64,000 nucleotides of DNA from Trypanosoma brucei. Its lineage: Eukaryota. The notes beneath the pieces are model-generated. The model ran no database searches. It saw nothing but the letters and a program-made list of their open reading frames with translations, and had not been told where the DNA came from. Positions 45,246 to 46,307 of the stretch are shown here, in pieces. How positions within the stretch are numbered: position 1 is the first letter of the stretch; each line of letters begins with the position of its first letter. The position numbers were made by a program, and so were the translations under genes. Where the stretch lies: the NCBI GenBank assembly GCA_000002445.1, contig CH464491.1, positions 2,432,001 through 2,496,000 on the forward strand, written 5' to 3'.

Positions 45246-46307
45246 ATGCTTCTGCAATTCAACTGGGACCGTCTTGACGTGACGGCCGCAGAGGCGATAT
45301 GCGCCCTTCTTAATGCAAAGCTTGAGGAGGAGCTTCTGCTGCGGCGCGCTGCGAACCAATCTGTCAATGCAAGCGGAGGTCAAGAGACTGCGAGTGCTGA
45401 CGCCGCTTGTGGCGTCGAATCACTACGAGTTACAAACATCGAGTGGGGAAATGTTCCTCCCTTCATTGAAGTAGTTGAGTTGGACGACGCTGTGGAGTTT
45501 GCCAGTAGCACCCCTCTATCTTTTGAGGCCCCACTAGGGCAACAGGACTTTGGGGGAACCATCTCAAGCGGTACATGCGGCGGTGGAGCCACGACACCTT
45601 TCTTTCTTCGTCCCTCACCTGCATCATCTGTCACTATGATGGATGGGATTAGCGAAACGGACTCAGGCATTGTGGGCAACCATGGTGGGATGCCGACTCC
45701 GTCAGTGCCGCCGGCGTCCGGGATACGCCCGGGAAACGGCCAGTCTCCGATCAATAGCTCAAGCGCACCGGTGAAGGACGCCTTCGCCGCGTATTTTGGT
45801 CCAAAGGGGTTGTACGTTTGTTTACATGTAACATACGGTGGACCCATGCGGGTTTCCGTGGCCTCCGTGCTGCGACACGATGTTCCACTGGGGCCCATCG
45901 CCATCCCCGTGCGGATGCCACTGCAGTTACACTTTTCGAAAATGGATATGGACTTCCACTTGTGCATTAACTTACATCGCAACACGTGCCGCGTATGGAT
46001 GGAACCGGGAAAGCTATTCACATCACCACTTAATAGAATGAATGTCATGGCGGTGTTCGGGGAGCGGCGACCGAGTTCTCAGCACATGGCAGAATTTCCC
46101 ACCAGCGGTCAGAACGCCGGTGACGACTTAGATACATCGGATGCATGGACGCATGTAGGGAGCAGCCGCATAGGCTCGGATGATGCAGAAGACATGGTGT
46201 TCATAGATGAGAGCATCATATCTCAGTTCGTTTTGAAGGAAGTACGGGCGATTCTGCAAGAGAAGATAATATACCCCCACTCTGTTGTGGTGCCACTGTC
46301 CCTTTAG
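45246..46307 (+). CDS. Hypothetical protein with an Mdm12-like SMP (synaptotagmin-like mitochondrial lipid-binding) domain architecture
   Basis: N-terminus 'MLLQFNWDRLDVTAAEAICALLNAKL' and 'ESLRVTNIEWGNVPPFIEVVELDD' parallel yeast Mdm12 '[28 protein letters not shown]' and '[25 protein letters not shown]'. Central 'GLYVCLHVTYGGPMRVSVASVL...IAIPVRMPLQLHFSKMDMDFHLCINL' parallels '[15 protein letters not shown]...[20 protein letters not shown]'. C-terminal 'ISQFVLKEVRAILQEKIIYPHSVVVPL' parallels '[26 protein letters not shown]'. A G/S/P-rich disordered insertion sits where Mdm12 has its acidic loop. This is a memory-based alignment only. Confidence 0.5.
   Translation: MLLQFNWDRLDVTAAEAICALLNAKLEEELLLRRAANQSVNASGGQETASADAACGVESLRVTNIEWGNVPPFIEVVELDDAVEFASSTPLSFEAPLGQQDFGGTISSGTCGGGATTPFFLRPSPASSVTMMDGISETDSGIVGNHGGMPTPSVPPASGIRPGNGQSPINSSSAPVKDAFAAYFGPKGLYVCLHVTYGGPMRVSVASVLRHDVPLGPIAIPVRMPLQLHFSKMDMDFHLCINLHRNTCRVWMEPGKLFTSPLNRMNVMAVFGERRPSSQHMAEFPTSGQNAGDDLDTSDAWTHVGSSRIGSDDAEDMVFIDESIISQFVLKEVRAILQEKIIYPHSVVVPLSL

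Follow-up and report, generated by a model that had tools for sequence, protein, structure and literature searches.

A probable Mdm12-family SMP-domain protein in Trypanosoma brucei and its possible role in an ERMES-like bridge

Do trypanosomes keep an Mdm12-type subunit of ERMES, the encounter structure of endoplasmic reticulum (ER) and mitochondria? The question is raised by a complete open reading frame (ORF) at 45246..46307 on the + strand of a 64,000-nucleotide stretch of Trypanosoma brucei DNA (contig CH464491.1, positions 2,432,001 to 2,496,000; hereafter the window), which runs from an ATG start through 353 amino acids (aa) to a stop in the translation of the window. A first-pass annotation made from the letters alone had likened the product to the SMP-domain protein Mdm12, a finding that would have been new for a kinetoplastid. 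The translation agrees exactly with the protein on which that proposal was built, and all of the segments it singled out were located: MLLQFNWDRL at aa 1-10, LRVTNIEWGNVPPFIEVVELDD at aa 60-81, LYVCLHVTYGGPMRVSVASVL...PLQLHFSKMDMDFHLCINL at aa 189-243 and ISQFVLKEVRAILQEKIIYP at aa 325-344. As judged from profile comparisons and a predicted structure, the 353-aa protein very probably belongs to the Mdm12 family, and ORF, translation, profile, hhalign and fold evidence together mark the gene as one encoding a soluble, predicted SMP-domain product. The likeness to Mdm12 therefore stands, whereas the claim of novelty does not, as proteins of this sort had previously been picked out by surveys and by UniProt automatic annotation. 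For trypanosomes, SMP candidates of the ERMES type were reportedly noted by Wideman in 2013, as cited elsewhere, and not studied in detail.

Candidates of this type are thus already on record, under inconsistent labels. Table S2C of a 2023 survey (PMC10648710) lists 'mmm1' and 'mmm2' for T. brucei and 'mmm2' and 'mdm12' for T. cruzi; its supplement gives 'mmm2' for Bodo and Neobodo and 'mmm2a/b' for Perkinsela, and in its Table S2B Leishmania major is scored empty. A diplonemid mitoproteome study did not find ERMES subunits (PMC12699882), and a review of Leishmania describes L. donovani as lacking SMP-domain proteins (PMC10341546). A literature search by the accessions of the T. brucei protein returned no mention of it. 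The window protein is 100% identical to XP_828988.1 / EAN79876.1 (UniProt Q384A5) of T. brucei brucei TREU927 and to TEOVI_000475800 of T. equiperdum; for XP_828988.1 / Q384A5 the database names are 'hypothetical protein, conserved' (NCBI) and 'SMP-LTD domain-containing protein' (UniRef).

Profile and fold evidence for the family assignment

Taken alone, the T. brucei sequence gave no Pfam match at E<=10 (hmmscan), hence no C2, PH or PDZ domain, and no meaningful match in the PDB (phmmer). The Pfam set that was scanned apparently lacks the PF26544 model, since yeast Mdm12 itself matches only PF10296 (MMM1) in that set. Relatives were instead sought with a profile of nine Trypanosoma sequences, which had no PDB match of its own. 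Run exhaustively with HMMER against 1.84 billion cluster representatives, this profile retrieved 42 relatives at E<=1e-3 (32 at E<=1e-10), many of which start MSFxFNW, MALxFDW or MSLNINW. At the weak end of the list it picked up CAOG_01118 of Capsaspora owczarzaki (E 6e-4). A faint PF26544:Mdm12 match is precomputed for one metagenomic relative. This more distant protein (P0043; gene 3001-4026 of the 340-kb ENA metagenome contig ERZ25071330) starts MSFNFHSS..., without the W, and its contig is gene-dense, seemingly intron-less and has nearly all called genes on one strand, an organisation resembling that of kinetoplastids.

When a 34-sequence profile that included the Capsaspora protein was compared with the PDB, seven distinct Mdm12 sequences were matched at E 2e-12 to 3e-11, together with Mmm1 at 6e-3 and no other SMP protein. 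A word-indexed search with the same 34-sequence alignment was dominated by low-complexity words and returned, among the matches listed, Trypanosoma proteins only. Because circularity had to be removed, the profile was rebuilt without any known opisthokont, from the window protein and 40 matches at E<=1e-10, with a fused gene model left out. Against 177,635 PDB sequences at E<=10, this 41-sequence profile gave seven matches, all of them to Mdm12 (8.8e-9 to 9.7e-7), with two alignments spanning yeast Mdm12 residues 1-263; neither Mmm1 nor any other SMP family was matched. Structures of Mdm12 are 5GYD, 5GYK and 5VKZ from Saccharomyces cerevisiae, 5H54, 5H55 and 5H5A from Kluyveromyces lactis, and chains B/D of the Mdm12-Mmm1 complex 5YK7.

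With the same 41 sequences, HMMER scored yeast Mdm12 at 41.2 bits and Capsaspora Mdm12 at 94.3 bits. Comparison by hhalign with yeast Mdm12 alone gave a probability of 96.5% (E 8e-10; 236 columns covering residues 1-266 of 271), which rose to 99.2% (E 2.5e-19) when yeast and Capsaspora Mdm12 were combined. The segment pairings proposed in the first-pass annotation were borne out by HMMER and hhalign: MLLQFNW lies opposite MSFDINW, and LRVTNIEWGNVPPFIEVVEL, LYVCLHVTYGGPMRVSV, IPVRMPLQLHFSKMDMDF and ISQFVLKEVRAILQEKIIYPHSV each pair with a counterpart segment of yeast Mdm12. The yeast strings given there proved accurate, being present in PDB chains 5gyd and 5yk7_B.

An AlphaFold2 model built from 48 sequences reached a mean predicted local distance difference test score (pLDDT) of 74.6 and a predicted template modelling score of 0.64, with 172 residues at pLDDT >=90; it replaced an earlier model from nine Trypanosoma sequences, which was discarded at pLDDT 40.6. 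In the predicted structure a short N-terminal strand is followed by a helix (aa 12-43), a hairpin, a disordered loop, five strands (aa 189-271), a second loop, a further helix (aa 322-340) and a terminal strand. The long helix is packed in a strongly curved antiparallel beta sheet, as predicted for an SMP/TULIP half-barrel. The best fold match of the model is Mdm12, with ~20% identity over aligned residues, and the comparison with the Mdm12 TULIP barrel that had been proposed at the outset thus came out in favour of this family.

Layout of the predicted domain and its conservation

The SMP domain begins at Met1, and the alignments with Mdm12 likewise start from M1. Its first part (45246..45485, aa 1-80; all parts are on the + strand) comprises the N-terminal segment MLLQFNWDRLD, the helix at aa 12-43 and the hairpin at aa 56-66/73-80 that contains LRVTNIEWGNVPPFIEVVEL. 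By alignment and pLDDT this is the 'head' half of the predicted SMP domain; it pairs with yeast Mdm12 residues 1-~70, MSFDINW included, and is modelled at pLDDT 82-96 except for a variable linker at aa 41-55. M1, F5, W7, D8, R9, L10 and D11 are invariant in the nine Trypanosoma sequences, and the N-terminal consensus over 41 relatives is MxLxFNW. The N-terminus is not a typical presequence, since D8, D11 and E16 lie in it and the predicted fold includes it. No transmembrane helix was found (the 19-residue Kyte-Doolittle mean peaks at 1.11 in the 353-aa protein).

The hairpin is followed by a weakly conserved, Gly/Ser/Pro-rich first insert (45486..45809, aa 81-188; G 16%, S 15% and P 12% over aa 80-188) that, on pLDDT and composition, is predicted to be disordered, with pLDDT <50 over most of aa 97-167. 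It lies opposite residues 70-114 of yeast Mdm12, which are non-conserved and disordered in crystal structures (PMC5839780), in agreement with the position that had been assigned to it from the letters. Its length varies among relatives, and its mean identity within Trypanosoma is 38%, against 63-77% for the three folded blocks.

The best conserved block, at 77% identity within Trypanosoma, consists of five long beta strands (45810..46058, aa 189-271; segments LYVCLHVTYGG...PVRMPL...MDMDF...CRVWMEPGK...AVFG). Delimited by pLDDT (93-96) and alignment, these strands would form the curved sheet of the predicted half-barrel and pair with the sheet region of yeast Mdm12. Over the 41 relatives, Y197, G198, G199, P225, D236 and W251 are kept in at least 90%, and G272 is invariant.

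A second insert (46059..46208, aa 272-321), acidic and Ser-rich, is predicted to be disordered from pLDDT, charge and composition (net charge -7, S 15%, D 15%; pLDDT <50 at aa 288-313). It has no counterpart in yeast Mdm12 and is 51% identical within Trypanosoma. Within it the nine Trypanosoma sequences share the motif SDAWTHxGSS followed by a D/E-rich stretch (aa 298-316, nt ~46137..46193), in which S298, D299, T302, S306, S307, S311 and D316 are invariant. Judging by its sequence, it could serve as a linear motif for phospho-regulation or for binding a partner, although it matched no known motif; 'YGSSxSEEEE' and 'NNGSRIYDDDG' in Leishmaniinae and Phytomonas recall it in part. Both loops were also inspected by eye for an FFAT-like motif, with no convincing match. 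The protein ends with an amphipathic helix at aa 322-340, ESIISQFVLKEVRAILQEK, and a final strand, IIYPHSVVVPL, which closes the predicted SMP domain (46209..46304, aa 322-353; pLDDT 86-94 and alignment). This part pairs with the C-terminus of yeast Mdm12 and with QLESFIVRQLRQVIHEKVVYPRFIKVLL of Capsaspora Mdm12, and E332, L337 and P344 are near-invariant among the 41 relatives. Altogether, low-complexity or disordered stretches make up ~45% of the protein.

T. congolense, T. vivax, T. grayi, T. rangeli, T. conorhini and T. cruzi have orthologues, which measure 331-351 aa and show 49-70% identity. Their alternation of conserved blocks and variable loops is, at the level of sequence, what a functional protein whose linkers are disordered would show. 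Outside Trypanosoma, orthologues of 509-721 aa were found in Leishmaniinae and Phytomonas (P0011-P0019), the named ones being those of Phytomonas sp. Hart1 (P0013, 509 aa), Porcisia hertigi (P0016, 635 aa) and Novymonas esmeraldas (P0019, 627 aa); the last two are automatically named 'SMP-LTD domain-containing protein'. In these longer proteins the loop after the first hairpin is much enlarged, to several hundred Ala/Gly/Ser/Thr/Pro-rich residues, and the Leishmaniinae orthologues have been missed by searches probably because a low-complexity insert of 300-400 residues splits the domain.

Proposed role and competing readings

In yeast, Mdm12 is cytosolic and is flanked by Mmm1, anchored in the ER, and by Mdm34, bound to Mdm10; the three SMP domains, joined tail-to-head, form a bridge whose cavities can make a lipid path (PMC7614606). 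Mmm1 and Mdm12 together make a minimal lipid-transfer unit, and the conserved N-terminal 10 residues of yeast Mdm12 matter for function (PMC5839780). The trypanosome protein retains an N-terminal head, a sheet and a C-terminal helix of the Mdm12 type. By analogy, it would bind glycerophospholipids in the hydrophobic groove of the predicted half-barrel, while its conserved head and tail would dock on SMP proteins anchored in the ER and in the mitochondrial outer membrane. Through such an assembly, an ERMES-like conduit, the ER and the single mitochondrion would exchange phospholipids. A bridging position, with recruitment by partner SMP proteins, is suggested because the protein itself carries neither a membrane anchor nor a targeting domain.

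That the T. brucei protein is the bridging subunit of an ERMES-like ER-mitochondrion conduit is, on this analogy, a proposition for which we see an even balance. More tentatively, and with rather less confidence, trypanosomatids may keep a cryptic, strongly diverged ERMES-type bridge in which the Mdm12 orthologue links ER-anchored and outer-membrane SMP proteins, possibly docked on TAC40 or another beta-barrel. Such a bridge, if it exists, would supply the missing ER-to-mitochondrion route for phospholipids and might tie lipid transfer to the inheritance of kinetoplast DNA (kDNA) and the mitochondrion, as in yeast. Taken together, Mdm12 identity and an ERMES-like bridging role make up a reading that we consider likely overall.

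Several points weigh against this combined reading. Singly, the Trypanosoma proteins have no Pfam or PDB match, not even a faint one, and because single sequences match nothing, the Mdm12 assignment leans on profiles and predicted structure. Most profile members are metagenome or Logan assembly sequences, and the Mdm34 comparison set is confined to Saccharomycetaceae. According to the trypanosome literature, a yeast-like ERMES has not been identified in these organisms (PMC8630539), and their Mdm10-like protein TAC40 acts only in kDNA segregation (PMC8630539, PMC5828607). In the 2023 survey the kinetoplastid SMP labels are inconsistent (PMC10648710).

Among trypanosome relatives of ERMES subunits only TAC40 has been studied, and its specialisation for kDNA inheritance (PMC5828607) also lends some weight to the main rival reading, in which an Mdm12-family protein has left ER-mitochondrion contacts and been re-deployed: to TAC40 and the TAC (tripartite attachment complex), to another contact site, such as that between acidocalcisome and mitochondrion, or as a lipid shuttle free in the cytosol. 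Links to mitochondrial DNA segregation are also on record for yeast Mdm10 and Mdm12 (PMC5828607), acidocalcisome-mitochondrion contacts are prominent in T. brucei (PMC6027259), and new interactions could be mediated by the two lineage-specific disordered loops, which stand at conserved positions, and by the acidic/Ser motif at aa 298-316. However, the searchable literature gave no connection of the T. brucei protein with the TAC, whether by proteomics or by localisation, the strongly kept N-terminal head and C-terminal helix suggest that ancestral SMP-SMP docking is retained, and other SMP candidates are listed for trypanosomes. We consider re-deployment rather unlikely.

The family assignment itself could be questioned if the T. 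brucei protein were an orthologue of the outer-membrane-proximal subunit Mdm34/Mmm2, perhaps the kinetoplastid 'mmm2' of the survey, which has 'mmm2' and no 'mdm12' for T. brucei, Bodo and Neobodo. Mdm12 and Mdm34 alike begin with the SMP domain (MSFxxN...), and the PF26544 and PF26545 models overlap, since Capsaspora Mdm12 has precomputed matches to both. Yet with the 41-sequence set, eleven full-length Mdm34 proteins and one Mdm34 fragment, all from Saccharomycetaceae, scored at most 5.8 bits in HMMER, against 41 bits for Mdm12, and hhalign with a Saccharomycetaceae Mdm34 alignment gave a probability of 0.8%, as compared with the 96.5-99.2% obtained with Mdm12. As to the sets compared, a query of yeast Mdm34, yeast Mdm12 and Capsaspora returned Mdm34 proteins and Capsaspora and no further Mdm12, so that the Mdm12 set is small; the yeast Mdm34 query is 99% identical to one of the Mdm34 proteins retrieved (P0067). 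Moreover, Capsaspora yields only its listed mdm12 and not its mmm2, and the trypanosome protein has no long C-terminal extension. The first-pass annotation had regarded the MSFDINW start as common to Mdm12 and Mdm34, which is right for Mdm12 and wrong for Mdm34: yeast Mdm34 starts MSFRFNE, and the W of 'FNW' agrees with Mdm12 only. An Mdm34 identity is accordingly improbable. A spurious resemblance, arising from a non-functional ORF or from low-complexity similarity, would be in keeping with a single sequence lacking Pfam and PDB matches, a ~45% low-complexity or disordered share and the pLDDT of 40.6 of the nine-sequence model, and is vanishingly improbable in a protein with conserved folded blocks and Mdm12 profile matches.

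To the existing record this analysis adds an assignment, along several lines, to Mdm12 rather than to Mdm34 or Mmm1, together with a confident fold model. It also adds that Leishmaniinae relatives and Phytomonas have orthologues, which huge inserts probably hide from standard searches; those of Porcisia, Novymonas and Phytomonas correct two statements on Leishmania, the absence of SMP proteins (PMC10341546) and the empty L. major entry of the 2023 survey. To the questions of how the ER supplies phospholipid to the single mitochondrion of trypanosomes, and what tethers the two, a conserved, syntenic Mdm12-type protein offers a concrete entry point. It is relevant, too, to how TAC40 evolved from an ERMES-associated, Mdm10-like barrel.

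Genomic neighbourhood and comparison with known SMP proteins

All ORFs of at least 250 aa in the window lie on the + strand, with the exception of one overlapping antisense ORF, a layout typical of a trypanosomatid polycistronic unit. Upstream of the SMP gene are genes for an NSUN5-type rRNA cytosine methyltransferase (39360..41114, +) and the proteasome subunit RPN2 (41661..44594, +), housekeeping genes that are functionally unlinked to it. Downstream is an ORF of ~1880-1967 aa (46687..52590, +; the annotated start is probably near 46882) without a Pfam match, which is conserved and syntenic in T. cruzi. The T. brucei group and T. cruzi share the order NSUN5-like methyltransferase, RPN2, SMP gene, ~1880-aa gene and ~480-aa gene. 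Within the 46687..52590 ORF, a 36-bp tandem repeat (50465..50669; 5.7 copies, 91% matches) encodes GRRADGKARADA-type repeats. In another trypanosomatid assembly a 2281-aa gene model (P0010), probably an artefact of annotation, joins the SMP gene to the ~1880-aa gene.

Two further products of the window were noted. An 893-aa protein (58905..61586, +) combines PX, a weak FYVE-like match, a Ser/Thr kinase and a C-terminal lipocalin-like domain (PF13924, E 6e-46), and by its domain sequence resembles a kinase that is targeted to phosphoinositides and carries a module for binding small ligands. A 1370-aa protein (32909..37021, +) combines a kinase domain with a WD40 match at the C-terminus and, with a syntenic T. 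cruzi counterpart that contains PIK3R4-like_middle, is probably a Vps15 orthologue.

Among known SMP proteins, E-Syt/tricalbin, including the T. brucei E-Syt (PMC8093936), and TMEM24 work where the ER contacts the plasma membrane and possess C2 domains as well as a transmembrane hairpin or anchor. The T. brucei protein described here has neither feature, and both families were rejected on this architecture and on lower scores. Mmm1 carries an N-terminal luminal segment and a transmembrane anchor before its SMP domain (PMC5839780), which the trypanosome protein also lacks; Mmm1 identity was rejected on the missing transmembrane segment, the start of the SMP domain at residue 1 and a lower profile score. 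Mdm34/Mmm2 is similar in that it, too, starts directly with the SMP domain (MSFRFN...), but the yeast-family Mdm34 proteins retrieved measure 456-524 aa and continue in a long C-terminal extension, whereas the trypanosome protein ends at its predicted SMP domain.

The resemblance to fungal Mdm12 extends to the whole layout: an SMP-only, soluble protein starting at Met1, an N-terminal strand MLLQFNW against MSFDINW, secondary-structure elements that follow one another in the same order, a disordered and non-conserved loop behind the first hairpin and a C-terminal helix with a ...L..E/K.hh.P... motif. There are also differences. The first loop is ~45 aa in the fungal protein and ~108 aa in the trypanosome one, where it is Gly/Ser/Pro-rich rather than acidic; the trypanosome protein, unlike yeast Mdm12, has an acidic/Ser-rich insert of ~50 aa before the C-terminal helix, while yeast Mdm12 has an insertion between two late beta strands that the trypanosome protein does not share. 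The closest relative from a known organism outside Trypanosomatidae is Capsaspora CAOG_01118 (EukProt EP00120_P007689), which Table S2C of the survey lists as Capsaspora 'mdm12', with separate entries for mmm1, mmm2 and mdm10 (PMC10648710). Capsaspora is accordingly listed with a full ERMES set (mmm1, mmm2, mdm12 and mdm10), as against the inconsistent candidate lists for trypanosomes, and its C-terminal motif, EKVVYPRFI, is nearly identical to the EKIIYPHSV of T. brucei.

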